In this document: in pieces, positions 2,025 through 27,639 of the stretch
How positions within the stretch are numbered: position 1 is the first letter of the stretch
Layout: each line of letters starts with the position of its first letter
Origin: a virus
Reading direction: 5' to 3' (one strand)
Virus genome (UHGV): UHGV-0085244
Length of the DNA stretch: 32,566 nt
Position numbers and translations under genes: made by a program
The notes under the pieces: model-generated
Database searches by the model: none
What the model was told of the DNA's origin: nothing
What the model saw: the letters and a program-made list of their open reading frames with translations, nothing else

Positions 2025-5000
2025 GCGTCGTATCCCCCCTGATCGCTGTAGTTACTCCTGGCTTTTGCCTTCAGCCTGCGTTCACGTTCATCAAGCTGGC
2101 GGGCCACCTCCCGCGCAATATCCTGCGCACTTTGTCCTGGCTGCGTCTGAATGATGATCTGCGTCGGTGCCTCAATCCGTTGAACGAGCGGCACAGTGGC
2201 TGCGCGACTCACAATTGCTTCTCCACCTTTCGCGGGAAGTGCCAAGGGGTGCAACGGTGGAAGCTCTGCTGGCGCGGCAGCAACGCCCATCATTCCGGCA
2301 ACAACGGCAGCCAGTGCAGCTGTATTTCTCCGGCTGGTCACATTTGCCGGGCCGTTAACAATTTCCGGCCCGTTTTCACCGACGATGCCAAACTGCCCAC
2401 GCGGGATATAGCCGCCGCTGTCATACATCCCCGCAAAGCCATATCCCCATGACGGAAAACCACCCGATGGCATCATCACTTTACCGTCTGCATTCACCGT
2501 CGCAGGTTGCTGACGCGTCACGCTTTCCGGCAGTTTCGCCTTTGCAGCCTCTTTACTGACAATGCCGAGTTTATCCAGCAACCAGGAAACGCCAGATTTC
2601 AGGGAGTCCAGCGGATGCATAACCATATTCAGCCCTTCCGCCAGTGCCTCCCCGAATCGTCGCCCCATTGCCGCTGCGCTCTGCAGTTCGGCAGAGGTCG
2701 ACTTAACGGGCGTCAGCAGATCAGTAAACCAGCCCCACAGCGCCTGCACTTTGTCACCAATCCACTGGAACACAGGCTTAAGCGGTTCGAACGCTGCACT
2801 GATGGGACCTGCCGCCGCTTTGAATCCTTCCACCACGCCACCGAGAAATGCGGTGATGGGTTGCCAGTATTTCCAGACAACCAGTGCCACACCCGCCAGT
2901 GCAGTAACCACAAGACCTATCGGACTGAGCAAAGCACCTAACAGACCAGATACGGCATACAGGGCAACGCGCAACATCGCCAGTGGACCAGATGCCAGTA
3001 CTCGCAGCACCGTGCCTGCGGCAGCCAGCCCGCCGCGCAGTACCGCCAGAGGATTCATAAACATCACAGCAACAGCACGTAAAGCGGATAATCCAGACCG
3101 CAATAGTGCAACCGGCGCACCTGCTACAGTTTTCAGGACATTTCCCGTCAGTGATGCCGTACGGCGCAAAGACGACAACGGCGCAGTAAGTAAACCCGCT
3201 GCGTTACCCGATGAAGCAAGCCCGCGTCGCAGCACTGCCAGTGGAGCGCCAGCCAGCCAGGACAACGCGCTGCTGGTTCGTGTTACTGCTGCCATAACGG
3301 AAGGTAACGTTTTGATGCCCAGCACAGAGAATCCCAGACGGATGACTGCCAGCGGCCCCAGCACTGCAGCCAGCGCCACAGCCAGGGTGCCGAGGCCTAC
3401 GGTAACCGCAGCCACAATAGCGGCTACTTTCATCAGTGTGCCCGTCAGTTCCGGGTTAGCTTCCACCCAGCGACGCAACGCTCCCGTAACGCTTTTCACC
3501 GTGTACAGAATATCCATCAGCGGCTGGCGCAGCGTTTCGCCCAGGCTGCTGAAGGTATTCTGCGCTCCGGTTTTAACCAGCAACCACTGAGCAGAAAGTG
3601 AGTCCTTGTTGATGTCGGATTCTTTCTGCATGGAACCGAGCGCATCATTGCCCGCTGTCAGTTTTAGCTGGCGCTGCAGTTCCGGAAGGTTGTTTGCCAG
3701 TTTCGCCGCGTCATCACCAAACTCTTTACCAAACAACATGGTCATGGCAGACAGACGCTTGTCCTGCGGCAGTGCGTTCACCTTCTCCAGCACACGCTGG
3801 ATAGTTCCCATCGCATCCTTCGTCATCTGCTTTTCAATCACTTCAGGATTGAGTTTCAGCAGATTCATCCCTTCAAAGAAACTCTTGCTTTGCATGGTGG
3901 CAATGGACAATTCACGCACCATCGCGTTTGCTGCACTGGCTGCAACCTCCGGCGCAGCGCCCAGTGTCAGAAAGGTGGACCCCAGTGCCGCCGCTTTACG
4001 ATAATCCAGACGGTCAGCCACACCGCCCAGACGTTGCATCACATCAATGATGTCCGCCCCTTTCGACATGGCGTTATCATCCAGATAGTTCAGCGCATCG
4101 CCGAGCTGTTCAATATTGCGGGTAGGTATTTTGTAGAGCTGGGCGATTTTCCCCAGACTTTCTGACAGTTCATCCGCTGGCAGCTCAAAGGCTGTTGCCG
4201 CCTTTGCTGCCGTACTGGCGAAGGCCAGCAGGTCACGTTTCTGGTCTTCCCAGCTGTCGTCAGGGTTTGCGACGTTCATGCGCGCACCACCTTCAACCAG
4301 TGCAGCGAAGTCCACCGCACCGTTTTCCATCGGCAACTGTTCGCTGGCAGCCTTGATGGCATCCTGCATTTCATAAAAACGTGCAGTGCGGTTGCCATTA
4401 TCGTCACGCAGACCATTGACCTGCTTTGCCACACCTTTCATGGCATCTTCCATGCTGGTATAGCTTTTTACTGCCGCCATCACTGGCGCACCCATTGCCA
4501 GCCCTGCAGCCGTGGTGGTGGCTCCGGCACCTGCAATACGATCACGCACCTCCAGCGAACGGGCATAACTGGCACGCGCTGCATTCATCCTGCGCTGAGC
4601 TTCCCCCAGTCGCTTCAGCCGTGCCTCCTGTTTCGAAAGTTCCTGGTTATAACGTGATGTTTCACGGGCTAAACGGGCAGTTGCTCCCGCATCGTCTTTC
4701 GCAGAAATTCCCGCCCGGTACAGTTCAGCACGCACAAGCGCCGTCTGCTGCTGCAGCTTTTTCTGGCGTTCTTCCAGGCGCTGAACAGCCAGCCGTTGAC
4801 GGCCCAGAGCAACAACCTGACGTTGCGAAGGCGGCCCCATCGTTCCCAGTTCCTGACTGAGCAAATTTGCACGCTGGCGGGCATAGTTCAGCCTGTCGCC
4901 TAATTTCTGATTTTCTGCCTGCAGCTTTCGGAAGCTGTCCAGACTGCTCCCGGCCTGATCAAGCTGCTTTATTGCATCGCGGGATTTTTTGACAGCAGCA

Positions 5001-5098
5001 GCCAGTTCTCTTGAACTGGCCTGCGCAGATCGAAATGGGCGGGTGAGCTTGTCAACCGCATTAAGAATGACCTGCAGGCGCAGGTTATTATCACTCAT
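2021..5098 (-). CDS. T: Tail tape-measure protein
   Basis: 1025-aa ORF, coiled-coil N-terminal part, Ala/Leu/Gly-rich repeated central part; sits between E/E' and U as in P2. Confidence 0.9.
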   Translation of the reverse strand: MSDNNLRLQVILNAVDKLTRPFRSAQASSRELAAAVKKSRDAIKQLDQAGSSLDSFRKLQAENQKLGDRLNYARQRANLLSQELGTMGPPSQRQVVALGRQRLAVQRLEERQKKLQQQTALVRAELYRAGISAKDDAGATARLARETSRYNQELSKQEARLKRLGEAQRRMNAARASYARSLEVRDRIAGAGATTTAAGLAMGAPVMAAVKSYTSMEDAMKGVAKQVNGLRDDNGNRTARFYEMQDAIKAASEQLPMENGAVDFAALVEGGARMNVANPDDSWEDQKRDLLAFASTAAKAATAFELPADELSESLGKIAQLYKIPTRNIEQLGDALNYLDDNAMSKGADIIDVMQRLGGVADRLDYRKAAALGSTFLTLGAAPEVAASAANAMVRELSIATMQSKSFFEGMNLLKLNPEVIEKQMTKDAMGTIQRVLEKVNALPQDKRLSAMTMLFGKEFGDDAAKLANNLPELQRQLKLTAGNDALGSMQKESDINKDSLSAQWLLVKTGAQNTFSSLGETLRQPLMDILYTVKSVTGALRRWVEANPELTGTLMKVAAIVAAVTVGLGTLAVALAAVLGPLAVIRLGFSVLGIKTLPSVMAAVTRTSSALSWLAGAPLAVLRRGLASSGNAAGLLTAPLSSLRRTASLTGNVLKTVAGAPVALLRSGLSALRAVAVMFMNPLAVLRGGLAAAGTVLRVLASGPLAMLRVALYAVSGLLGALLSPIGLVVTALAGVALVVWKYWQPITAFLGGVVEGFKAAAGPISAAFEPLKPVFQWIGDKVQALWGWFTDLLTPVKSTSAELQSAAAMGRRFGEALAEGLNMVMHPLDSLKSGVSWLLDKLGIVSKEAAKAKLPESVTRQQPATVNADGKVMMPSGGFPSWGYGFAGMYDSGGYIPRGQFGIVGENGPEIVNGPANVTSRRNTAALAAVVAGMMGVAAAPAELPPLHPLALPAKGGEAIVSRAATVPLVQRIEAPTQIIIQTQPGQSAQDIAREVARQLDERERRLKAKARSNYSDQGGYDA

Positions 5099-5527
5099 CG
5101 TTGGCCCCGCTTCTCTGAATCGCTTTATACCGCCATTCCAGCACTTCGGTCAGCGGCATAACGTCAGTAACGGATGGCGGCCAGTGAAAGATGGTGGCGA
5201 TATCAGCCACCAGATCGTCAACCGTCAGGCTGTCGGTAAACCGGCAAGCACCGACTTCTTCAACAAAAAAGTGACAACCTCAACCGACATGGCAGTGAGA
5301 TCTGCCGGGTCCATCTCTGCAATTTCCTGTGCAGTCAGTGCCGGACTGGAGATGCGGGGGATCACGGTCATCATCGCGTTCACATCCATATCCATAATGG
5401 CCTGCAGGCGTGTACCGCGCAGCGCACCGGACTGCGGTTTACGCAGCACAATTTCGGTGATTTCTGTTTTACCGCGCATGATGGGGGTATCCAGTTGAAT
5501 GGTCTTTTCAGTCTGTTTATCGCTCAT
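5091..5527 (-). CDS. Tail assembly chaperone E+E' made by programmed -1 ribosomal frameshift
   Basis: Slippery TTTTTTG on the minus strand (plus-strand 5265-5271); the -1 frame reads on as VEEVGACRFTDSLTVDDLVADIATIFHWPPSVTDVMPLTEVLEWRYKAIQRSGANDE with no stop for 57 codons, ending at a TGA (5091-5093) that overlaps the T start. Confidence 0.75.
5225..5527 (-). CDS. E: Tail assembly chaperone E (zero-frame product)
   Basis: 100-aa ORF directly upstream of T, ATG start; contains an in-frame T_TTT_TTG slippery heptamer. Confidence 0.85.
   Translation of the reverse strand: MSDKQTEKTIQLDTPIMRGKTEITEIVLRKPQSGALRGTRLQAIMDMDVNAMMTVIPRISSPALTAQEIAEMDPADLTAMSVEVVTFLLKKSVLAGLPTA
5265..5271 (-). other. 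Slippery heptanucleotide for the E/E' -1 frameshift
   Basis: Minus-strand ACT TTT TTG in the E reading frame. Confidence 0.75.
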
Positions 5528-5581
5528 TTTGTTGTCCTGTCAATTGGGTTCTGGCGCGGTATCCCGCGCCGTTCAGATATA

Positions 5582-6097
5582 TCAGAGGCCGAGGGCGTTG
5601 CGGTGCGCTTCCATCAGGTCCACACCGTCCACAATTTCCACCATGTTGATAAGGTCCACTTCATAGAGCACCTCACCATTGATGGTCAGCTTCGCGTAGC
5701 TGTTGGTACTGGTCACTTTGGTGGTGTTGCTTTCGCCCGTCTTCCACTCGCCGGAATCCACTTCTTTGTGACGTCCACGCACGACAAGCTCCACGGCCTG
5801 CACTTCCCCGGTATCGTCACGCTGGATAGAGCCGGTAAAGCGCAGCTGGATGCCATCCACCGTGGATTTGCCCATCTGCTTAAACAGCAGCAGTTCAGTA
5901 CCACCAATGGAAAATTCTGTATCCAGTGCACTGTCATCCAGTCCCAGATCCACATCCACTGCACCCGGCATTCCGCCGCCGCGATACTTCTCATATTTGC
6001 GGGTAAATTTCGGCAGCGTCAGCGACTCAACGATCCCCTGCCAGTTGTTCCCGTCGTTAAACAGGTTCAGGTGTTTTAATTTGCGTGGTAAAGCCAT
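5582..6097 (-). CDS. FII: Tail tube protein
   Basis: 171-aa ORF, P2 FII-like; synteny after the sheath gene. Confidence 0.9.
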   Translation of the reverse strand: MALPRKLKHLNLFNDGNNWQGIVESLTLPKFTRKYEKYRGGGMPGAVDVDLGLDDSALDTEFSIGGTELLLFKQMGKSTVDGIQLRFTGSIQRDDTGEVQAVELVVRGRHKEVDSGEWKTGESNTTKVTSTNSYAKLTINGEVLYEVDLINMVEIVDGVDLMEAHRNALGL

Positions 6098-6106
6098 GTT
6101 GTCCCC

Positions 6107-7279
6107 TTACGCGCTGACCTGGCTGGCGAAATTCACCAGGTACTGATCGGTGATGCGCTGACGCAGCATCAGGTTTTCAAGTGGCGGCACTGGCGTGTAG
6201 TCGTAGTCGATGGTGAGTTTTCCGGCTTTCAGCGTGTCTTTGTCGTTCACCGACTCATCCAGCCAGCAATCACCACCAATGAGATAGCCCTGACTGACCA
6301 GGCTGCGCATTTTGGCGCGGATACCTTCGATAATGTCGCGGGCCAGCGACGGGTTAAGCGGTTTATCCACCGCCCACATGTGTGCTTCTGCCATCGTGTC
6401 CATCAGCACCTGCGCCGTGCGGGTGTAGTTTTCGAAGGCAAAGAGCGGGTCATCACTCAGGCAGCGGGAACCCCAGAAGCGGAAACCGTCTTTACGCACA
6501 AGCGTGGTGACGTCGTTCTGGTTCAGCAGACCTGCATCGGTTGCCGGGTCCTGCAGATCCCAGAACACATCTGCAGAAATTCCGGTGACACCGTTCACGC
6601 CCACGTTGGACAGGCTTTTGTGCCATCCGGTCTGCTCGTCAATTTTGGCGCGCAGACCAAGCGCACGGGCGGTGGCATATGCCGTTGCTTCGGCATTCAG
6701 CACCGTGTCCCAGCCAGTAAAGTCAGGCCAGATCAGCATCCCTTCGCGCTGGCTGAAGTTTTCGCGGTAAGTGATCGCCTCCTGCACTGTCTTGCAGCCA
6801 TACGCTGACAGGTAAGCAAATCCACGCAGGCTTTGCGCCACGCTCAGCAACTCAGTAGCTACCGCCTTGGTATCGTGGCCTGGCACGCCGAGAATGCGCG
6901 GTTTAACGCCGAGCTGTGACTGGGCAGATAACAGGGCTTTCATACCTGTTTTTTTACCTTCAGCAGTCACTGCTCCGATGATATTGGTCGTGGTTTCTTC
7001 TTCCGTTTCACCCTGCGGCACACGCACAACAACGGTCACGGGTTTTGCCTGGTCAGCGATGGCATCCAGCGAACGAGCCAGCGTGCCTGACTCACCCGCT
7101 TTACCGCTGGCAGTCAGCACATCAGTGATCAGCACGGGTTTATTAAGAGGAAACATTTTTGCATCGGCATCATCGCCCGTGCAGACCATACCCACGATGG
7201 CGGTGCTCACCGTGGTAATGGATCGGGTGCCTTCGTTGACTTCAACAACGCGCACCCCGTGGTGGTAATCCTGAGCCAT
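6107..7279 (-). CDS. FI: Contractile tail sheath protein
   Basis: 390-aa ORF, P2 FI-like sheath; synteny. Confidence 0.9.
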
Positions 7280-7355
7280 AGTGGCGAACCTCCTGATTGG
7301 ATTAGGCTTCGCCCTATGTTGAAGTGATTGTGCCTGACAAACAGCTAAGCGCAGT

Positions 7356-7373
7356 TGTACCGTTATTCACACA
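7356..7373. promoter_or_regulatory. Candidate Ogr-binding dyad (TGT-N12-ACA) of the late FI operon promoter
   Basis: TGTACCGTTATTCACACA about 85 bp upstream of the FI start codon. Confidence 0.55.
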
Positions 7374-7421
7374 AAATGACGGTATTTGTCTGCTTTCAGG
7401 GATAATCAAAATAAAGCTGAT

Positions 7422-7988
7422 TCAGGGAGATTTATTGTTCTTATTTGCCGGAAATTTTCGATAAATGGTAGAAACGCCTACATCAAAAATCAGTGCAATA
7501 CGCTGTCTTGATTCTCCGGCCTCGAGTAAACGCCCAATCTGTGCCCACTGTTCGCTGGTCAACTTAGGACGGCGTCCACCTACTCTGCCTTTAGCACGAG
7601 CTGCAGCCAGCCCCGCCCTGGTACGTTCAACTATCAGTTCGCGTTCCATTTCAGCCAGGGCACCCATGACATGAAAAAAGAAACGGCCCATTGGGGTGCT
7701 GGTATCAATACTGTCAGTCAGGCTTCGGAAATTCACGCCACGCTGGCGCAGCTCTTCTATCAGCGTAACAAGATGCCGCATACTGCGCCCCAGTCTGTCC
7801 AGCTTCCAGACAACCAGCGTGTCTCCTGCCGATAGTGTCCTGAGCAGCTTTTTCAGCCCCGGTCTGTCGGACTTGGTGCCACTGATTTTATCCTCAAAAA
7901 TCCGCTCACATCCCGCACAGTTCAGTGCATTGCGTTGCAAATCGGTGTTCTGGTCATTTGTTGACACGCGTACATAGCCAATAAGCAT
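7422..7988 (-). CDS. Serine-recombinase DNA invertase (Hin/Gin/Cin/Pin family)
   Basis: N-terminus MLIGYVRVSTNDQ with catalytic-Ser context, C-terminal HTH; start placed at the ATG 6 nt after a GGGGG RBS (track ORF 7422..7994). Confidence 0.9.
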   Translation of the reverse strand: MLIGYVRVSTNDQNTDLQRNALNCAGCERIFEDKISGTKSDRPGLKKLLRTLSAGDTLVVWKLDRLGRSMRHLVTLIEELRQRGVNFRSLTDSIDTSTPMGRFFFHVMGALAEMERELIVERTRAGLAAARAKGRVGGRRPKLTSEQWAQIGRLLEAGESRQRIALIFDVGVSTIYRKFPANKNNKSP

Positions 7989-8043
7989 GATCATCCCCCT
8001 GAATAAAAACCGGAGATGATGCCAGTTAGCCGTTATCTCTGCA

Positions 8044-8068
8044 TTTTCATAAACGTTGGTTTGGGAGA
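8044..8068. repeat. Invertase crossover site (hix/gix-like), invertase-proximal
   Basis: TTTTCATAAACGTTGGTTTGGGAGA; inverted-repeat partner at 9592-9616. Confidence 0.7.
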
Positions 8069-8405
8069 GGGAGCAAAATTAGGCGCAGCGGTGTGTGTGA
8101 CCGGCTCTACAGGCTATATGACTATCCCGGCAATGGTCGCCGGGAAAGAACGGGTGATCATATTGCAGTGGTTTGATGCCTCTACAAGTGGTTATGCGAC
8201 ACCAGTAACTGCGAATTTCCCTATTGCATTCCCAAATGAGTGCATGATTCCGTTATTTAGTGATGTATCAACTGGGGCTGCTGATTTGAGTTCTACAACT
8301 GCATATAATTTGGCTGTTGGTAGAACGTATTACACTGGTATGACAAAAACTCAAATTACATGTGCTGGCTACGGTGGCTTTAGAGTTTTCGCGATTGGAT
8401 GGTGA
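8069..8405 (+). other. Silent alternative tail-fibre C-terminal cassette (Sv'-like), expressed only after inversion
   Basis: Part of ORF 8016..8405; shares ILQW and FPIAFPN motifs with the C-terminus of H; no plausible promoter or start of its own. Confidence 0.65.
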
Positions 8406-8410
8406 TTAAT

Positions 8411-8830
8411 ATGTTTTATTCTGCAAAAGAAAATGCGTTCTACGCTGATGAGCTAAAAAGTATTTATGAAAATGCAGGTAGCTGGCCTGACGATGCCGTT
8501 GAAGTAGACTATTCCGTATTCGTTGAGTTTGCCGGAGAATCACCTAACGGAAAATTACGCGCTCCTAATTCTGATGGTTTACCTGAATGGATAGATATTC
8601 CCGAACCAACTGAAGAGGAAATTATTGCGTTGGCAGAAGCCGAAAAATCGCGACTGCGTGCTTCAGCTGACTCTGAAATAGAATGGCGGCAGGACGCCGT
8701 TGATGCGGGGATCGCGACGGAAGAAGAAACTGTTTCATTAGCCGAATGGAAAAAATACCGGGTGCTGCTGATGCGAGTTGATACAGCAGACCCGGACTGG
8801 CCTACTCCTCCGGCGACTCAGGCCAGTTGA
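8411..8830 (+). CDS. Alternative tail-fibre assembly chaperone (U'/G'-like), silent orientation
   Basis: [16 protein letters not shown]... parallels the minus-strand assembly protein [18 protein letters not shown]...; starts 6 nt after the Sv' stop. Confidence 0.75.
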
Positions 8831-9233
8831 TATCTGGTGCGCTGGATATGTCCACAGATTCCAGCGCATCGAGATAATCCAGCCACTCGTTATACTGGGC
8901 CTTCTCGTCGTCTGTAAGTCGTCCCAGCGCAGCTTTACCCGGCCACTGCTTGCTGTTTATATACTCATTAGCCTGATCGATACGATACTGTTTTTCAGCT
9001 TCAGCTGCTGCGATTTCCTCCTCATGGCTTAAAGGTGGAATGTCTACCCATGCCGGCATTCCATCCTCAGTAGCTCCACGAGTTTTACCCTCTGGTGGCA
9101 TCCCCGAATATTCAGTGAATGTCTCATCTGAGACGGCTATGAGATCGTCAGGCCAGTTTCTACTCGCTTCATAAACATCTCTGAGCTCATCAGGGTAGAA
9201 AGCGTTATTTAATGCTGAATAAAAATAAGCCAT
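8802..9233 (-). CDS. G: Tail-fibre assembly chaperone (currently expressed)
   Basis: 143-aa ORF directly downstream of H, P2 gpG-like. Confidence 0.85.
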
Positions 9234-19088: not shown

Positions 19089-20855
19089 ATGAACACCACA
19101 CTGACACCCGCAGATCTCGATCCCCGTCGGCAGGCCATGCTGCTGTACTTTCAGGGATACCGCGTAGCCCGCATTGCTGAAATGCTGGGCGAGAAAGTTG
19201 CAACCGTTCACAGCTGGAAAAAACGCGACAAGTGGGGTGACTATGGGCCGCTGGATCAGATGCAGCTCACCACCGCCGCACGCTACTGCCAGCTCATTAT
19301 GAAGGAGCACAAAGAAGGGAAAGATTTCAAAGAGATTGACCTGCTGGCGCGCCAGTCGGAGCGCCACGCGCGGATCAGCAAGTTTAACAATGGCGGCAAC
19401 GAAGCCGACTTAAACCCTAACGTCGCCAACCGCAACAAAGGCCCGCGCCGTCAGCCGGAAAAGAATGTTTTCACCGATGAGCAGATTGAGAAGCTGGAAG
19501 AAATCTTCCATTCCTCCATGTTCAACTACCAGCGCCACTGGTGGGAAGCCGGAAAAGCCAACCGCATCCGCAACCTGCTGAAGTCACGCCAGATCGGCGC
19601 GACCTTTTACTTTGCCCGTGAAGCCCTGATTGACGCCCTGCTTACCGGACGTAACCAGATTTTCCTTTCCGCCAGTAAGGCACAGGCCCACGTCTTTAAA
19701 CAGTACATCATCGACTTCGCCAAAGAAGTGGAGGTGGAGCTGAAAGGCGATCCGATGGTGCTTCCCAACGGGGCCACTCTTTACTTCCTCGGCACCAATG
19801 CCCGCACGGCCCAGAGTTACCACGGCAACCTGTATCTGGATGAATATTTCTGGATACCGAAATTCCAGGAGCTGCGCAAAGTGGCTTCCGGTATGGCTAT
19901 TCACAAAAAATGGCGACAAACCTATTTTTCCACGCCATCCAGCCTGACCCACAGTGCTTATCCGTTCTGGTCCGGTGCACTGTTCAACCGTGGACGCAAC
20001 AAAGCCGACAAGGTGGACATCGACCTGTCCCATAGCAATCTGGCCCCCGGCCTGCTGTGCGCAGACGGGCAATACCGCCAGATAGTCACCGTGGAAGATG
20101 CGGTGCGCGGCGGCTGTAACCTGTTCGACCTTGACCAGTTGCGCATGGAGTACAGCCCGGACGAATACCAGAACCTGCTGATGTGCGAGTTCGTGGACGA
20201 TCTCGCGTCCGTGTTCCCGCTCAGCGAGCTGCAGGCGTGCATGGTGGACAGCTGGGAAGTCTGGACCGACTTTCATGCTCTGGCCCTGCGCCCGTTTGGC
20301 TGGCGCGAAGTGTGGATCGGTTATGACCCGGCAAAAGGTACGCAGAACGGCGACAGCGCCGGATGCGTGGTGGTGGCACCGCCAGCCGTGCCGGGCGGTA
20401 AGTTTCGCATTCTTGAGCGTCACCAGTGGCGCGGGATGGACTTCCGCGCCCAGGCTGACGCAATCAAAAAACTGACCGAGCAGTACAACGTGACCTACAT
20501 CGGCATCGACTCAACCGGCGTTGGTCACGGGGTTTACGAGAACGTGAAAGCGTTCTTTCCTGCCGTCCGGGAGTTTGTCTACAACCCCAACGTTAAAAAC
20601 GCCCTGGTACTCAAGGCCTACGACATTATCAGCCACCGCCGTCTGGAGTTTGACGCCGGACATACCGACATTGCGCAGTCATTTATGGCAATCCGTCGCA
20701 CCACCACCGCCAGTGGCAACCGCCCGACCTATGAAGCCAGCCGCAGCGAAGAAGCCAGCCACGCCGATCTGGCATGGGCAACGATGCACGCACTGTTTAA
20801 CGAACCGCTGCAGGGCGAATCCGCCAATACCAGCAATATTGTGGAGATTTTTTGA
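19089..20855 (+). CDS. P: Terminase large (ATPase) subunit P
   Basis: 588-aa ORF, P2 gpP-like; stop overlaps the Q start (TGATG). Confidence 0.9.
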   Translation: MNTTLTPADLDPRRQAMLLYFQGYRVARIAEMLGEKVATVHSWKKRDKWGDYGPLDQMQLTTAARYCQLIMKEHKEGKDFKEIDLLARQSERHARISKFNNGGNEADLNPNVANRNKGPRRQPEKNVFTDEQIEKLEEIFHSSMFNYQRHWWEAGKANRIRNLLKSRQIGATFYFAREALIDALLTGRNQIFLSASKAQAHVFKQYIIDFAKEVEVELKGDPMVLPNGATLYFLGTNARTAQSYHGNLYLDEYFWIPKFQELRKVASGMAIHKKWRQTYFSTPSSLTHSAYPFWSGALFNRGRNKADKVDIDLSHSNLAPGLLCADGQYRQIVTVEDAVRGGCNLFDLDQLRMEYSPDEYQNLLMCEFVDDLASVFPLSELQACMVDSWEVWTDFHALALRPFGWREVWIGYDPAKGTQNGDSAGCVVVAPPAVPGGKFRILERHQWRGMDFRAQADAIKKLTEQYNVTYIGIDSTGVGHGVYENVKAFFPAVREFVYNPNVKNALVLKAYDIISHRRLEFDAGHTDIAQSFMAIRRTTTASGNRPTYEASRSEEASHADLAWATMHALFNEPLQGESANTSNIVEIF

Positions 20856-21889
20856 TGGGAAAGAGTAAGAAGAACCGAGCTGCGGCGACGAAACAGATCC
20901 AGCTTAAAAGTCAAACTACAGCCGAAGCATTCAGCTTCGGCGATCCCGTTCCTGTTCTGGACCGCCGTGAACTGCTGGACTATGTGGAATGCGTACAGAT
21001 GGACCGTTGGTATGAGCCGCCCGTCAGCTTTGACGGACTGGCGCGCACCTTCCGCGCCGCCGTGCATCACAGTTCCCCGATTGCAGTAAAGTGCAACATT
21101 CTGACCAGTACCTATATCCCTCATCCGCTGCTCAGCCAGCAGGCTTTTTCGCGTTTTGTGCAGGACTATCTGGTATTTGGTAACGCCTACCTGGAGAAAC
21201 GCACGAACCGATTCGGTGAAGTTATCGCCCTTGAGCCTGCCCTGGCAAAATACACCCGACGTGGATTAGACCTGGATACCTACTGGTTTGTACAGTATGG
21301 CATGACCACGCAGCCCTATGAATTTACGCAGGGCAGCATCTTTCATCTGCTGGAGCCGGATATTAACCAGGAGATTTACGGGCTGCCAGGCTATCTCTCC
21401 GCCATCCCGTCAACCCTGCTCAACGAGTCCGCAACGCTGTTTCGCCGGAAGTATTACATCAACGGCAGCCACGCAGGTTTCATTATGTACATGACCGACG
21501 CAGCACAGAACCAGGAGGATGTGAACAATATCCGTCAGGCAATGAAAAGCGCCAAAGGACCGGGTAACTTCCGCAACCTGTTTATGTATTCGCCCAACGG
21601 CAAAAAGGACGGCATCCAGATCATCCCGTTATCAGAGGTTGCGGCGAAAGACGAGTTTCTTAACATCAAGAACGTTAGCCGCGATGACATGATGGCAGCG
21701 CACCGCGTGCCACCGCAGATGATGGGAATTATGCCGAGCAACGTTGGTGGGTTTGGAGACGTGGAAAAAGCTAGTCGAGTATTCGTTCGTAATGAATTGA
21801 TTCCACTTCAAAAAAGATTAATGGAATTAAATGAATGGCTTAATGACGAAATTATTCGTTTTGACGAATATAAATTAGGCGATGCTTGA
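20855..21889 (+). CDS. Q: Portal protein Q
   Basis: Track ORF 20852..21889 begins with TTG; ATG at 20855; P2 gpQ-like. Confidence 0.9.
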   Translation: MGKSKKNRAAATKQIQLKSQTTAEAFSFGDPVPVLDRRELLDYVECVQMDRWYEPPVSFDGLARTFRAAVHHSSPIAVKCNILTSTYIPHPLLSQQAFSRFVQDYLVFGNAYLEKRTNRFGEVIALEPALAKYTRRGLDLDTYWFVQYGMTTQPYEFTQGSIFHLLEPDINQEIYGLPGYLSAIPSTLLNESATLFRRKYYINGSHAGFIMYMTDAAQNQEDVNNIRQAMKSAKGPGNFRNLFMYSPNGKKDGIQIIPLSEVAAKDEFLNIKNVSRDDMMAAHRVPPQMMGIMPSNVGGFGDVEKASRVFVRNELIPLQKRLMELNEWLNDEIIRFDEYKLGDA

Positions 21890-21898
21890 TTAAAGCCT

Positions 21899-21932
21899 GT
21901 TTAAACTGGCTGTCGAAACAGCCAGTTTAAAC
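21899..21932. other. Perfect 15-bp-stem hairpin (4-nt loop) between convergent Q and the cargo operon; possible bidirectional terminator
   Basis: GTTTAAACTGGCTGT-CGAA-ACAGCCAGTTTAAAC; no flanking U-tract on either strand. Confidence 0.5.
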
Positions 21933-22775
21933 ACCGGCACCAATGAAATCGCCATATGAATCTTCTTCAAGGCTGATGTATTCCACCCTCCATTGATCCA
22001 TCCGCCTCAATGCATACAGGGAGAAATGAGTATCGGCAACAGCAATGCACGTATTCAATTCTATAAGCTCTGAATGTCCCAAGATTGGATCACCATAAAA
22101 CTTATAAAACAATGCCTTTAGATCAGAACAGGTTTGTTCAGCCGCCCCTCTGGCATCGGGGCCACCTTCAGTTGCATCATAAACAACATTGATAGAAAGC
22201 TCATATGGTATGCCTTCCTCAAGATCGTTAAATCTTTCTTCGCCCAAATCGAAAAAAACTCCGATCAAATGCTCTGCGTTTGTGGCGATAATGTCCGCAA
22301 CTTCTTTTTCGAAAATAAACTTTTTATCCTCGTCGTAAGCCCGCAAGCGCTCTTCAAACGAGTTAGGAAACGCTGGACGACCATACTTAGCTGCTAACCA
22401 TTGCTTAAGAGCTTGTTTCTCTTCTGTGCTAATGGAGAATGCCGGATCGTTTTCCTCACAACGGAAAGCTTCTTTAGAAATGATGACTTTTCTTTCATGC
22501 CGAAGCTCTACTGCGTTCTTCTTAGCACTTTCTGGGTTTTCAAAGCATAGATCGAGGATTCTCGGATGCTTAGCTCTTTTCATCTTGCTTGACCCCTTTT
22601 TCAAGGGGCCAAACATCAGTTCCACGTTTTTTTCAGAATTACTCTGTAAATCACAATCATGCGTTATAACTACAACTTTATGGTTCGTTTCATCAGGCTT
22701 CAGAAGTCCAAGTGAAACGGCATCATCATGTTTAAGAACATGCCCCTGACGCCATGATGTTCCTCGTACCAACAT
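21927..22775 (-). CDS. Hypothetical protein, third gene of the cargo operon; function unknown
   Basis: 282-aa ORF with ATG start 9 nt after the preceding stop; AT-rich; no P2/186 counterpart recognised. Confidence 0.7.
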   Translation of the reverse strand: MLVRGTSWRQGHVLKHDDAVSLGLLKPDETNHKVVVITHDCDLQSNSEKNVELMFGPLKKGSSKMKRAKHPRILDLCFENPESAKKNAVELRHERKVIISKEAFRCEENDPAFSISTEEKQALKQWLAAKYGRPAFPNSFEERLRAYDEDKKFIFEKEVADIIATNAEHLIGVFFDLGEERFNDLEEGIPYELSINVVYDATEGGPDARGAAEQTCSDLKALFYKFYGDPILGHSELIELNTCIAVADTHFSLYALRRMDQWRVEYISLEEDSYGDFIGAGV

Positions 22776-22784
22776 AAATGTGAT

Positions 22785-23447
22785 TTATTCCTCTACTGTT
22801 CTAGGAATTGAAATAGATGACTTCCAATCATCTGTCGGTTTCGCCTTGCTTGCTAAGTAATTGGTCGATTCAGCAGCTGCATTCATCGCTTTAGCTTCAT
22901 CAATCAGTACCTGAACTGGCTTGTTCCAATCCTCACCTTCTTTTATTAAGTCCATCAATGACCTACCATTGAATGCTTTCATTTTCACCAATAGCTTCGC
23001 ATCATTGAGTCCAGCTTTGGAAAAAGAGTCAGCAACATTACTGAGGTTGGTAATGAATTGGACTTTTGAAGCATCATCAGGCTGGTTCTCCCCTGACAAC
23101 CATTTATAGAGAGCCTGCCGAGTTATCCCCAAATCCTTAGCCAGTTCTGACATTGATGGAGACAGCACTTCTCGAATATTAGCCAAATGTTGGGCAACAT
23201 TCCTGACATCAACCTCAGGAGAAATTGCAGGCGTGTACGTTGACTCTATGGAATCAAATGCAAACTGAACCCTTGGCTGAACATACTGACGCCATTGCTT
23301 ATAAGCATTTACAGGGTATGAAGCCCCCGTACCAACTAATAGTAAAGATGCGGCGACAGCAACAACACCTGATACACATGAGCTTGACTGCGAATCTGGA
23401 GTATACCGATCTACAGAGCCTATGCTTCCAGTAGGAATTGCATACAT
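22785..23447 (-). CDS. XRE-family helix-turn-helix protein with N-terminal hydrophobic segment, second gene of the cargo operon
   Basis: HTH ...NVAQHLANIREVLSPSMSELAKDLGITRQALYKWLSGENQP; start placed at the ATG (MYAIPTG...) after a GGGGGTGA RBS; the track's longer form 22785..23555 would overlap the upstream gene by 89 nt; start uncertain. Confidence 0.65.
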   Translation of the reverse strand: MYAIPTGSIGSVDRYTPDSQSSSCVSGVVAVAASLLLVGTGASYPVNAYKQWRQYVQPRVQFAFDSIESTYTPAISPEVDVRNVAQHLANIREVLSPSMSELAKDLGITRQALYKWLSGENQPDDASKVQFITNLSNVADSFSKAGLNDAKLLVKMKAFNGRSLMDLIKEGEDWNKPVQVLIDEAKAMNAAAESTNYLASKAKPTDDWKSSISIPRTVEE

Positions 23448-23466
23448 TTTAGTCACCCCCGTTGTT

Positions 23467-24276
23467 TCAGTGCCATTTAGCACGGGCAAAATCTGAAACC
23501 ATGCCTTCAAATGCTTCTTTAACTTTACTATGCAACGAAAGAATCTGTTTTTCAATTAACTGCAAATCAGTTGACATGTTGCCTTCAACATAATGATCTG
23601 TATCAATTATTGCGTGCATACGATGTTCTGTATTACTAAATCTCGGCAGCGGCAGTAAACCATTAGGAATCATATCTGGCGGAAAACCTAGCTGACCATT
23701 CATCTTATGTATACGTGAAACCATAAATCCATTAGAGATCAGTGGCTCAACACATGTCTGATATACAGACTCTTGTATGGACTGTATTGGCGTCCATCCA
23801 AAATCAACACCATGAAGTTCCTTTACAAGATACTGCTCAATTGTTTCGCTTTTCTCAGGAAACACAGCATCCAAATATCGAAGCCCAATCCTGCTTACCA
23901 ACGATGGCTTAGCAAATTCAAGAACTTTGCTCAGACCAAGTATTAATGACGAGATGAAAGGTACATGATTATCATAATCTGTTGTATGGAACGTAATGAA
24001 ATCGTTGCCTAAAACAAAACCAGACCTTCTATCTGCATCAATCATCAACCAACTTGTCACAGGCTCAAATGAATGTACCGGTGGCTCATTGGGGTTTTTC
24101 ATTTCAAATTTCAGCTGAGTTGTATTGGAAACTTCAAATAAAGGAAATCCTTCAACTCTTAGCGCATCTTGTATGTCTGGAACATACTTACTCATTGCAG
24201 CTACTGGAGTAAACTTTACTTGCACCAATGCGTAGTAAACGGGCGCATTGGACATACGTTCGCTGTTAGTACTCAT
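23467..24276 (-). CDS. Hypothetical protein, first gene of the cargo operon; function unknown
   Basis: 269-aa ORF with AGGAGG RBS 5 nt before the ATG; N-terminus (SNAPVYYALVQVKF) faintly recalls an uncharacterised TIGR04255-type family, from memory and unverified. Confidence 0.7.
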   Translation of the reverse strand: MSTNSERMSNAPVYYALVQVKFTPVAAMSKYVPDIQDALRVEGFPLFEVSNTTQLKFEMKNPNEPPVHSFEPVTSWLMIDADRRSGFVLGNDFITFHTTDYDNHVPFISSLILGLSKVLEFAKPSLVSRIGLRYLDAVFPEKSETIEQYLVKELHGVDFGWTPIQSIQESVYQTCVEPLISNGFMVSRIHKMNGQLGFPPDMIPNGLLPLPRFSNTEHRMHAIIDTDHYVEGNMSTDLQLIEKQILSLHSKVKEAFEGMVSDFARAKWH

Positions 24277-24416
24277 GCCGCCCTCCTTGAAGTTGTTTCA
24301 TCTCATATCTCTCTATCTCACTAACTGTAGTTTACACATAGGTTGACACTTTCTCCATCATTAAGTTCACTATGACATCAATAGCCAAAACTCTTACATA
24401 ATCGCTTCGGCGCGCG

Positions 24417-24435
24417 CTCGTATCCCCGCCACGCC
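24417..24435 (-). other. Candidate cos site (cohesive-end sequence)
   Basis: Minus strand reads GGCGTGGCGGGGATACGAG; the first 13 nt match the 5' part of the P2/186 cohesive ends as I recall them; orientation is correct for a cos that reads toward Q. Confidence 0.5.
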
Positions 24436-24480
24436 TGCCCGCTTTATGTAGTGGTTTTCATGCACCTGCATGATCTACGC

Positions 24481-24504
24481 AAAAGCCCGCCAGTTCTGGC
24501 GGGC
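24481..24504 (-). terminator. Rho-independent terminator after the DinI-like gene
   Basis: Stem GCCCGCCAG / CTGGCGGGC with a 3-nt loop, followed on the minus strand by TTTT. Confidence 0.6.
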
Positions 24505-24639
24505 CTTAGCAAAAACGATCCTCAAACGATCATGCGATCTCATGCGGCATAGACATGCACTACAGAGCTAACGCCTCGCAAGGGCTCGTTGTTCAACCTT
24601 GCTGACGCCAGAAACAAGTTCAGACGCCAGCAACGTTTC

Positions 24640-24873
24640 TTAATGCAGCCAGCTGTCGTCTTCCCACACCTTCTGCATAATTTTCATCACTTGTTTTCTT
24701 TCTTCGTCCAGTTGCAGTCCGGTCAGTTCCACACCGTTAGAGCTACCTTTGCGGATACGAATTACCGTTTTGGGATACAGGGGGCGCAGATTGCGGTAAA
24801 GCTCGGATTCAAGGGCGTCCAGTGTAGACTGGCTAATCTTCTGCTCTTTATCGATCATTATTTCAATGCGCAT
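24640..24873 (-). CDS. DinI-family protein (Tum-like, possible SOS-dependent antirepressor component)
   Basis: MRIEIMIDKEQKISQSTLDALESELYRNLRPLYPKTVIRIRKGSSNGVELTGL...WEDDSWLH resembles DinI; GAGGTGA RBS before the ATG at 24873 (track ORF 24640..24945). Confidence 0.75.
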   Translation of the reverse strand: MRIEIMIDKEQKISQSTLDALESELYRNLRPLYPKTVIRIRKGSSNGVELTGLQLDEERKQVMKIMQKVWEDDSWLH

Positions 24874-24883
24874 AAAAGTCACC

Positions 24884-25072
24884 TCAGCTGATGACATCCA
24901 TTGAGCGGTTGTATTCATGGGTTCTGATTTTTGCCATGAGTTCATCTGTCAGTTCAGAAACCCACTGCAGGGCCAGCCCCTTCTCTTCATCACTACACTC
25001 ACTAGCCGCTACAAGCTTAAGAAAAAAATCAATGCGCTGGAGCTTCAAAGACTCCAAAAAATAGTCCTGCAT
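24884..25072 (-). CDS. Small hypothetical protein, first gene of the LexA-controlled operon
   Basis: 62-aa ORF with AGGAGG RBS, immediately downstream of the LexA box and ending just before the DinI-like gene RBS. Confidence 0.5.
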   Translation of the reverse strand: MQDYFLESLKLQRIDFFLKLVAASECSDEEKGLALQWVSELTDELMAKIRTHEYNRSMDVIS

Positions 25073-25224: not shown

Positions 25225-27639
25225 TTAATACAGATCCCGCCACTTATCATCTTCCTGCAAACGCTGGTTCCGATAGAAGATACGCAGGCCTGCTCCTGAC
25301 GGAATACTGCCACCGCGAAGGAGTAAATCGACCTCTTTCTCGCTTCCATCAAATCCTCTGGACTTCAGTTCATAGACGAGCTGCTGTCGCTGATGATCTG
25401 TAATTCGCTGTTTGTAGTCTCTACGCCGTTTCGGTTTCACCAGGCGTAACCTTGCAGCCAGTTCCCGGCGCTCTTTTTTGTTCATACTGTGCAGGTAATC
25501 GTGCAATTCCTTGTCATCCATGCAGGTGATATCCGTTCTGGTATCCCCATCAGCTGATTTGTCTTTCCCTTGTTGGTACAAATTTTCAGCAAGGGGACAG
25601 TTATTGCCACGAGTCCAAGGGGCGCAAGCGCCCTGGTCGGCTGCCGCCTCCTGAACGTCAACGGCCTTACGAACCATTTTCCACTTCACTACATGAGTGC
25701 AGATCTTGCCCTCTGCAATGGGTGACCAGATGCCATAAATACGAATACCGTGATCGCCATAGGCGGTTGGCTCTTCGTTGATTTCATAAGCGGTTCTGAT
25801 GAGGTGATATTTGCGGGGAACCAGTACGCCGCCCTGCTTCATGATGTAGGTGGCAAAACAACCAGCATCAGCAGCAGCCAGAATGGCATCAAGACGCGGG
25901 TTATCCAGTACCGGCGCACCTGCTTTTTTGTCACCCTGTTGCCTTGCCGCCTGACCAGCCAGCAAGCGAAGTTCACGGTAAGCCTGACGTCCCGGAATAC
26001 CAAAGAAGCGGAATTGCTGAACACGATGCAGAGACGCCCAGGCATTAACGTATTCAGCGTTATCACGCAGGGATTTACCCGTTTCCTTGCTGATCTCGCC
26101 AGCCAGACCACGCCCGTCAATGTTCTTACTGATGTATTTCGCGATGTAGCTTGTCGGCGTTCCTTTGCGCGGGTTTATCAGCTCAGATTTAAAGCGTGGA
26201 CCAGTGTTATTACCCAGTTCCTCGCGGTCTTCACGGATGGCAAACTTACGCAACAATGCAGTAATGGCGCGGCGGTCTTTTTTGCGCATGAAACACAACA
26301 GGTGCCAGTGAACTGTACCGTCATGATGCGGCTCAGCCACCCGCACGCCATACCAGCGCAACCCGGCTTTGTGCATCGCCTTACGAAATGCAGCAAACAT
26401 GCCGACCAGATAATCGCTGCTTTGTCTTACCGTCGCATTTGTCCAGGTTGGGTTTGGTCTGCCGTTATTGAGCGTGGAATGGAAACGTGACGGACAGGTA
26501 ATGGTGTAGAAAACGGCGCAGTCACCGCGCATTTCCGCGATAAGCTCCAGACCTTTAACACAGGCCATCATCTCATTGCGGCGGTGCGCCGGGTTGCTGC
26601 TGCTGGCGTTTACCACGTCTTCCATATCCAGCGTGTCGCCCTCTTCGTTCACCAGTTCATGAGAACGGAAAAACTCCAGTGACTTGCGGCGCTGCTCACG
26701 TTTATGCATCACGGCTTCATAGCTGACATAGGGAGATGCTTTTTTGCTGACCAGGCAGACAGCACGCAACTGCTCTTCCCGCCATTCGCAACGCATTTTC
26801 CATAATTTCCGGTACCACCAGTCGGCGCACAACATACGCGCCAGCGAACCCGGAATGAGTTCATAGGGCACGGGTTTACGGCGGTTTCTTTTCCGACGGA
26901 GTTGCTCAAACGCAGGCGGGATGACATCCAGACGCAGGGTTTCCGCTGCCACCTTTTCCCATGTCTTGCGGATTTCTTCTGGCTTAACGTCATCGGTGGC
27001 ATACAAATCACCACAAGCTGCATCAAGGCACATGCTCATATGCGCAGCGACAAGGGTAGACAGGCGTTTCACCTGATCCTGACTCATTTCAGGCAGAATC
27101 AGCAGGCCGTCCAGCCCTACATGGCTTGCCATAAAACGAAAAGATGCAGATAGCTGGCTGTCGCGTACATGCTCCAGTCGTTCCAGACATGGCTTAATCG
27201 TCTCACGTAAATAGCGGGAATAAGCCTTTGGCCTGCCCAGGCTGCTGAAGTATTCAATACGTTGCATCAGCGGCTTGCTGATATGGGAGGGCTGGGCGCT
27301 GACGTCTACCAGAATGACCATGTCCGGGTTAAAACGCTGCTGCTCATGCGCCAACTTTGCCCGGCTAATGAGCTTATCCTGCTCTATTTCGCGTTGGACA
27401 GGATCACGGGATTCATTAAAGAAATAACGCTCCCAGACCTGATCACTCAGTGCCTCGCGGCGCAGTTGTTCCTGCTCGTTATCGGCAGCGTACAGAGTGA
27501 TCAGGTTTGAAAGCGCAGAAACCGGCGCAACTTCCGCCGGGTCCAGATAAGGGTTAATGGCCTTTTTCGGGCTGTTCCATGAGAACGATGCGGCAGCCTC
27601 TTTAAAGCCGCAGCAGTTGCTCATATCGGCATGGCTCAT
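25225..27639 (-). CDS. A: Replication initiation protein A (rolling-circle nicking endonuclease)
   Basis: 804-aa ORF with HWHLL (HUH-like) and YIAKYISK tyrosine motifs; P2 gpA-like. Confidence 0.9.

Follow-up and report, generated by a model that had tools for sequence, protein, structure and literature searches.

The window analysed here is the whole 32,566-nucleotide stretch of UHGV virus genome UHGV-0085244, a P2-like prophage. Between its portal gene and the cos site and replication gene gpA, in a variable cargo hotspot, the window carries a 2.35-kb cassette of three genes, all on the minus strand and separated by gaps of 19 nucleotides (genes 1 and 2) and 9 nucleotides (genes 2 and 3). 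Gene 1 encodes a member of the uncharacterised TIGR04255 family, and the cassette is a good candidate for a new system, either anti-phage or toxin-antitoxin-like. The three genes are:

23467-24276, minus strand: gene 1, 269-amino-acid TIGR04255-family protein
22785-23447, minus strand: gene 2, 220-amino-acid Xre-type helix-turn-helix (HTH) protein (Pfam HTH_3, E 6.6e-5; phrog_8 transcriptional regulator, E 4e-15)
21927-22775, minus strand: gene 3, 282-amino-acid protein and probable effector, its N-terminal ~105 amino acids with a predicted MazF/Kid/CcdB fold

Gene 1 is a genuine open reading frame (ORF) that runs on the minus strand from an ATG start to a TGA stop, and RefSeq annotates the same gene in complete Escherichia coli genomes (n = 18). 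Its conservation as a coding sequence, on which the proposal of an earlier note on this DNA had been made to depend, is evident from the homologue alignment and from comparison with the copy in a 96.8%-identical E. coli region: the two copies of gene 1 differ by 20 synonymous and 8 non-synonymous changes (dN/dS = 0.10), and the ORF is under purifying selection. The earlier note had also suggested, from the peptide SNAPVYYALVQVKFTPV (residues 9-25), a weak resemblance to TIGR04255. That suggestion was correct. The NCBIfam model TIGR04255.1 ("sporadTIGR04255") matched gene 1 with 184.8 bits (E 2.5e-54) against a curated cut-off of 30 bits, and the match was full-length, residues 7-269 aligning with the entire profile (positions 1-252 of 252). 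The RefSeq name for the gene is likewise TIGR04255, in agreement with NCBIfam.

Within this family gene 1 is a plain member, of the same length class (~255-275 amino acids) and with the motifs NAPxYY, RxGxRYLD and a D-x-D strand. A profile search of 1.84 billion cluster representatives found 2,187 family clusters (50% identity) at E ≤ 0.001, 386 of them at E ≤ 1e-30, and nearly all were stand-alone proteins of 255-275 amino acids. No model in Pfam, PADLOC or PHROGs matched gene 1, and no Protein Data Bank (PDB) chain was matched by single sequence or by profile. The searchable literature contained no papers on TIGR04255, on IPR026349 or on the RefSeq protein accessions. The product name "TIGR04255 family protein" stands twice, with numerical values, in a sheet of supplementary Table S3 of the DefensePredictor paper (PMC13092281), where it may contribute to defence prediction as the name of a neighbour.

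An alignment of 211 family members showed one invariant residue, R133, and thirteen others conserved in at least 90% of members (P12, Q19, Q36, R40, T99, Y101, R129, G131, E169, P199, D225, D227, and W268). The closer subfamily of gene 1 shares the motifs NAPVYY, RxGxRYLDA, FPPD, and HxxIDxDH. The polar set formed by R133, Q19, Q36, R40, T99, Y101, R129, E169, D225, and D227 has the look of an active site or a site for ligand binding. The earlier description of gene 1 as a protein with no recognisable catalytic motif stands for known motifs, but across the family this polar set is strongly conserved. Of the three proteins, gene 1 is the best conserved, with ~48-51% identity where gene 2 has ~40-45%, and this high conservation, together with a dN/dS of 0.10, is more easily reconciled with a fixed ligand or chemistry than with a fast-evolving protein that binds phage proteins directly. 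Against the E. coli copy, gene 3 likewise had a dN/dS of 0.10, and gene 2 had one of 0.24.

The three genes occur together far beyond the P2-like prophages. Gene 2 followed gene 1 in 85 of 87 loci and both partners were present in 80 of the 87, always in the same order; 80 of the 87 loci came from reference genomes, and the misses lay mostly at contig ends. The hosts of the 87 loci were Gamma-, Beta- and Alphaproteobacteria, Chlamydiae, Nitrospirae, and Omnitrophota. When about 150 loci from many phyla were considered, down to 21-33% identity, the arrangement was again gene 1, then an Xre-type HTH protein, then a protein of ~280 amino acids, and the median intergenic gap was 11 nucleotides at both junctions, with several overlaps. 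We define the triad as a TIGR04255 gene, an HTH gene and a gene 3 homologue in the same orientation, which is the arrangement found in the window. It was also present around distant family members (21-45% identity), including the metagenomic representatives P0340 and P0389 and those of Paraburkholderia, Burkholderia, and others. At 21-33% identity it was found on plasmids of Acinetobacter baumannii, Vibrio, and Meiothermus (Deinococcota), and in a plasmid-labelled Klebsiella pneumoniae record in which a phage tape-measure gene is also present. In one metagenome-assembled genome of the Parachlamydiaceae (locus L076, 8001-12505), the gene 3 homologue lies ~2.3 kb past gene 2 rather than ~10 nucleotides, with an insertion between them.

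In one lineage, genes 1 and 2 are fused. The P0290 cluster contains six full-length, non-identical proteins of 433 amino acids on at least eight contigs, one of them 5.29 Mb long. In the fusion, profile positions 2-258 of gene 1 are joined to profile positions 45-213 of gene 2, and a normal full-length gene 3 homologue lies downstream. Taken together, the fusion and the strict linkage indicate that TIGR04255 marks a three-component system, and the products of genes 1 and 2 very probably work together in one complex. The island that holds two of the fusion loci (L154, 6001-7302, and L155) also contains Fic, PIN-MazE, HNH, and CfrBI-type restriction genes.

The prophage setting of the cassette is given by the following features, beside which the window carries Dam methylase, capsid, tail, lysis, and integrase genes; the 96.8%-identical E. 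coli region has the same annotations.

19089-20855: terminase, a P2-like backbone gene
20852-21889, plus strand: portal, convergent with gene 3
24417-24435, minus strand: cos-like site GGCGTGGCGGGGATACGAG, within GGGCAGGCGTGGCGGGGATACGAGCGCGCG, a close parallel to the P2/P4 cos region GGGCGGGCGAGGCGGGGAAAGCACCGCGCG in a P4 clone sequence
24479-24510: strong terminator hairpin GCCCGCCAG/CTGGCGGGC, upstream of gene 1 and before the cos-like site
25225-27639, minus strand: gpA replication endonuclease

The G+C content of the three genes is 38-45%, against ~52-55% for most of the phage backbone. The hotspot around cos, bounded by the portal gene Q and the replication gene A, is known to carry anti-phage systems, and defence activity was obtained from old-tin and from three of eight other systems cloned from it (Rousset 2022, PMC9122126). 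The cassette itself appears in Table S5 of the same paper, as NZ_CP025840 with WP_058344351, and its summary row, 59, reads "HTH_31" and "1 TM in protein 2" (PMC9122126). A value of 69 stands beside the rank of locus 59 and looks like an occurrence number, as which we read it. The cassette shares its slot and its catalogue with other P2 hotspot cargo (old, tin, Rst_3HP, DUF4238, and DprA-PRTase), and is AT-rich, with three genes and a promoter region of its own. It differs from P2 old and tin, which lie on the gpA side of cos, in lying on the portal side; cargo seems to occupy both sides of cos.

Near-identical copies were found in 18 of 5,426 complete E. coli genomes, and a DNA-level search of deposited phage genomes found no near-identical copy. 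Among IMG/VR viral contigs, 52 carried a relative; of these contigs 46 had the whole triad and 32 had a P2-type portal gene at most 600 nucleotides from gene 3. Diverged versions (44-62% identity) hold the same P2 slot in Atlantibacter, Citrobacter, Franconibacter, Escherichia sp., and Winslowiella. One IMG/VR contig (L118) encodes all three proteins with 100% identity to those of the window beside a gpA that is 86% and a portal that is 93% identical. Serratia sp. L9 (locus L008) has identical gene 1 and gene 3 proteins, a gene 2 protein that is 99% identical, and a gpA that is 87% identical, with portal and terminase absent within 6.4 kb downstream; by its gpA and the lack of a portal it is a different element from the window. 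Identical or nearly identical cassette proteins in backbones whose gpA is just 86-87% identical indicate recent exchange of the cassette between P2-like elements; the arrangement in Serratia may alternatively indicate extra cargo or a rearrangement.

The earlier note's proposal implied that homologues of gene 1 would cluster in prophage hotspots or defence islands, and they occur in both. Outside the P2 slot, the triad was found in a different prophage, where it adjoins SSB and primase genes; on an integrative element with a type I restriction-modification system, and beside a second type I system elsewhere; beside HmaA-like proteins (four neighbouring ORFs) and PbeA-like proteins (five neighbouring ORFs); beside a DUF4011 helicase-restriction endonuclease gene and DUF499/DUF1156 genes; and among PIN, Fic, MazE, HNH, and restriction genes. 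Two large ORFs recur directly upstream of the triad in unrelated hosts. One, of 755 amino acids and without a Pfam match (loci L019, L028, L029, L036, and L048), is the probable source of the PbeA matches in PADLOC. The other, of 1176-1244 amino acids (loci L021, L022, L026, L030, and L063), combines an SNF2 helicase with NOV_C and matches HmaA at E = 0. These neighbours may reflect shared islands or functional partnerships.

The AlphaFold model of gene 1, with a predicted local distance difference test (pLDDT) score of 90.3, has a duplicated beta-alpha-beta4-alpha architecture. Foldseek comparison with the PDB returned weak matches only (AdoMetDC and TBP; E ~1e-4 or weaker, template-modelling (TM) score ≤ 0.29), and the predicted architecture is a familiar one without a close structural homologue. 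The conserved polar residues fall on strands with i/i+2/i+4 spacing (R129/R133 and H221/D225/D227). Such alternate spacing of charged residues is as expected for one face of a sheet. Gene 1 resembles guanidino (phosphagen and protein-arginine) kinases, McsB, and the glutamine-synthetase-like fold in architecture only, from which it is set apart by ~10% identity, a Foldseek TM score below 0.3, and the lack of kinase signature motifs. Neither Pfam ATP-gua_Ptrans nor the signature active-site motifs of that family matched gene 1, which is therefore not assigned to the ATP:guanido phosphotransferases or McsB. The RnlA and LsoA toxins have TBP-like N-terminal domains, to which the similarity of gene 1 is weak; in those toxins the domains are fused to a HEPN RNase, whereas the gene 1 module is a separate protein.

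Gene 2 starts at the ATG at 23447, in agreement with RefSeq, and M1 is invariant in the homologue alignment. The longest ORF, which starts at a TTG at 23555 (22785-23555, 256 amino acids), would overlap gene 1 by 89 nucleotides, and mis-annotation of gene 2 is to be expected from automatic longest-ORF calling. The alignment showed an N-terminal hydrophobic segment, an invariant GTGxxY/W motif, a conserved LLKMKAFxGRSLxDL segment, and a conserved C-terminal tail, DWxSxxSIP. By the Kyte-Doolittle criterion, the hydrophobic segment is transmembrane-like in just 39 of 76 homologues; it is not a conserved feature, and we rejected the reading of gene 2 as a membrane protein, which the "1 TM" entry in Table S5 had suggested. 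A motif resemblance to the MbcA/ParS/Xre (DUF2384) antitoxins was also rejected, no such Pfam or NCBIfam family being matched at E values up to 1; the only match was a marginal profile match to an MbcA chain (6fkg_C, E 0.062), in the HTH region. Matches of gene 2 to the PADLOC models RmrA and mad1 were weak (E ≥ 7.7e-4) and likewise confined to the HTH.

Gene 3 is predicted to begin with the SH3-like barrel of the MazF/PemK/CcdB toxin superfamily. Residues 38-42 form the motif (S/T)(H/Q)xCD, after which come the helix WLAxRYxRPAFP and an alpha/beta domain at the C-terminus. Gene 3 was matched by neither the PemK nor the CcdB model of Pfam, nor by any PADLOC family.

The order and spacing of gene 2 and gene 3 are like those of classical type II toxin-antitoxin pairs in which an Xre-HTH antitoxin is combined with a MazF/PemK/CcdB-fold toxin. 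The cassette departs from such pairs in the length of gene 3 (282 amino acids, with an extra C-terminal domain), in its different conserved residues (C41 and D42), in the lack of a PemK/MazF sequence match, and in the third, larger, obligate TIGR04255 gene that stands before the pair. Tripartite toxin-antitoxin systems, namely the toxin-antitoxin-chaperone (TAC) system HigBA-SecB, omega-epsilon-zeta, and PaaR-PaaA-ParE, likewise have three co-transcribed genes of which one modulates a toxin-antitoxin pair, but in the cassette the third component differs both from a SecB-like chaperone and from a small repressor, being a protein of 269 amino acids with enzyme-like conservation. SecB was not among the fold matches of gene 1, and the cassette is accordingly not classed with the TAC systems. 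The triad thus resembles known tripartite toxin-antitoxin and abortive-infection arrangements, with a TIGR04255 component that has no characterised relative. The family annotation was already known; the strict three-gene module, its predicted folds and the range over which it travels are not in the searchable literature.

Two further assignments were tried and rejected. Rst_3HP, the published "hp+hp+hp" P2 system active against P1, is unrelated: the best BLASTP match of Hp1-3 had E 0.076 over 42 amino acids, and profile searches returned nothing. A type III toxin-antitoxin system (ToxIN/CptIN/AbiQ) was not supported, as the cassette has no antitoxin RNA repeats, only the leader octamer and a terminator palindrome, and no Rfam match.

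We propose that the cassette is a toxin-antitoxin-like triad, probably with a role in abortive infection or exclusion, and give this reading a probability of about 45%. Gene 3 would be the effector, because it encodes the only protein with a recognised toxin fold; gene 2 and gene 3 would form a toxin-antitoxin pair, because they are ordered and spaced as in classical type II systems; and the natural fusion ties gene 1 to gene 2. The earlier note had named gene 1 a candidate effector or sensor; the predicted folds point to gene 3 as the effector, which would leave gene 1 as a sensor, regulator or enzyme. The genes for the TIGR04255 protein, the Xre-HTH protein and the protein with the predicted MazF/CcdB fold move as a unit between the cargo hotspots of phages and mobile elements. 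As we picture it, gene 2 would be a DNA-binding autoregulator and an antitoxin-like adaptor, gene 3 a growth-arresting effector, and gene 1 the subunit that binds gene 2 and has a sensing or regulatory, possibly an enzymatic, role. A large, open antiparallel beta-sheet platform in gene 1, with a putative cluster of conserved Arg, Glu and Asp residues, may bind, and possibly transform chemically, nucleic acid or a ligand that bears a phosphate. On a phage cue, gene 1 would bring about the release or activation of gene 3, leading to abortive infection or the exclusion of competing phages.

Several observations weigh against this proposal. The searchable literature yielded no experiment on the cassette or on any TIGR04255 protein, and the cassette was not among the systems cloned and tested from the hotspot (Rousset 2022, PMC9122126). 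In PADLOC-DB 2.0.0 the three proteins matched no known or candidate defence system beyond the weak HTH matches of gene 2, and some copies of the triad, such as L096 and L002, have no defence genes nearby. The fusion proves that genes 1 and 2 are functionally linked, but would fit regulation in either direction. The fold matches of gene 1 are distant (~10% sequence identity at the TM scores given above), and no ATP-binding motif is recognisable in it. We infer the toxicity of gene 3 from its predicted fold; at the sequence level gene 3 has no similarity to MazF or Kid (hhalign probability <1% against E. coli MazF and Kid), and the position of the MazF catalytic arginine is not conserved, being lysine in the window, arginine in most gene 3 homologues, and absent in distant ones.

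An unlikely alternative, though the most probable of the rivals, places the toxicity in gene 1, as an ATP- or nucleotide-using modifying enzyme with an active site on a guanidino-kinase- or glutamine-synthetase-like sheet. Its downstream antitoxin, of the Xre type and HigA-like, would then be gene 2, while gene 3 would be an accessory or second effector. The matches of gene 2 to antidote models cover the generic HTH only and fall far under the cut-offs, and no known nucleotide-binding motif or Pfam enzyme family was detected in gene 1. The sole recognised toxin-fold domain is in gene 3, which is kept in the cassette as strictly as gene 1.

A somewhat less probable reading takes the triad for an ordinary toxin-antitoxin module that serves addiction or stabilisation, or for a regulatory cassette, carried along in variable regions with no part in phage defence and with gene 1 as a structural accessory. 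Its architecture is toxin-antitoxin-like and often found among PIN, Fic, and MazE modules, some loci have no defence neighbours, and the models of the defence database are unmatched. Many toxin-antitoxin modules in such places, however, are abortive-infection systems. The triad also recurs beside restriction-modification, HmaA, PbeA, and helicase-nuclease genes, and several diverged versions of it hold the P2 cargo hotspot, where old-tin and three of the eight other cloned systems did defend (PMC9122126). A triad that is only a toxin-antitoxin module would still be a new tripartite architecture.

More speculative, and improbable on present evidence, is the idea that TIGR04255 is a new class of enzyme which, on infection, modifies the Xre or the MazF-fold partner (for example by phosphorylation or nucleotidylation) or makes a small signalling molecule. 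The active site on its sheet platform would be like that of guanidino kinases or glutamine synthetase in architecture, with no relation in sequence. If this were true, the cassette would be a defence system with new chemistry, present in many bacterial phyla and carried by P2-like phages. Least probable of all is that gene 1 serves solely to chaperone or stabilise the gene 2 antitoxin, much as SecB does in TAC systems, by binding the hydrophobic N-terminal extension of gene 2: such a segment and the invariant GTGxxY/W do exist, and the fusion drops exactly profile positions 1-44 of gene 2, as if covalent linkage had made the segment dispensable, but the fold of gene 1 is not SecB-like, an invariant Arg and Asp-x-Asp/Glu set kept across phyla is unexpected in a passive chaperone, and only about half of the gene 2 homologues (the 39 of 76 noted above) have the hydrophobic segment.

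TIGR04255 is a marker of one strictly conserved, horizontally mobile three-gene module that is found in the P2 hotspot, in other prophages, on plasmids, and near defence genes. Were the triad a defence system, as we propose, it would be a widespread new prophage-encoded member of that class that affects phage infection of E. coli, Klebsiella, Salmonella, Serratia, and environmental bacteria, and it would bring a new sensor or enzyme fold. The cassette is small, has its own promoter region and is directly testable, and it has already been flagged as a hotspot locus by others (PMC9122126). In recent P2/P4 and machine-learning defence papers, the cassette was not described in the main text.

In Nitrincola lacisaponensis and related contigs (L002, L003, and L004; ~4869-9041), the triad lies exactly between a His_kinase gene and a LytTR response-regulator gene, next to type IV pilus genes and with no defence neighbours, an unusual place of insertion. 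In the window, two small minus-strand ORFs occupy the interval between cos and gpA (24640-25072), and their E. coli counterparts are a DinI-like protein and a hypothetical protein of 62 amino acids. Both ORFs are counted in the hotspot locus in Table S5 (PMC9122126).

The signals for expression of the cassette, and the sequence at its distal end, are:

24360-24388, minus strand: weak sigma-70-like promoter candidate, TTGGCT-17 nucleotides-CTTAAT, 8 of 12 matches, found by eye
24301-24323, minus strand: imperfect octamer repeat, GTGAGATA-like on the coding strand, ~2.8 copies (TRF, period 8), in the gene 1 leader
24282-24288, minus strand: Shine-Dalgarno sequence AAGGAGG, 5 nucleotides before the gene 1 ATG, read directly from the sequence
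21902-21929, no strand assigned: hairpin TAAACTGGCTGT-TTCG-ACAGCCAGTTTA, overlapping the gene 3 stop codon between the convergent gene 3 and portal genes, read from the sequence

The hairpin at 21902-21929 is likely, by its sequence, to be a bidirectional terminator. The region was flagged by TRF through the repeated GTTTAAAC; the hairpin lacks a T-run and was not called by a terminator scan. At the other end, gene 1 is the promoter-proximal gene of the operon, the first of three co-directional and closely spaced genes, and it has the strongest ribosome-binding site of the three, two points on which we agree with the earlier note. Its perfect AAGGAGG is unchanged in the Serratia, E. coli, and IMG/VR copies, whereas the sites of gene 2 (GGGGGTGA) and gene 3 (AGAGGA, ~12 nucleotides from the start) read as weaker or badly spaced. 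A promoter scan of the intergenic region upstream of gene 1 called none, the candidate at 24360-24388 being below the scan threshold; the stretch is invariant among four copies. The octamer repeat in the leader may represent operator or regulator-binding sites, or possibly a slippage-prone leader of variable length. In Serratia sp. L9 (~7945-8000 of locus L008), the octamer is expanded to ~7 perfect copies in a leader that is otherwise identical.

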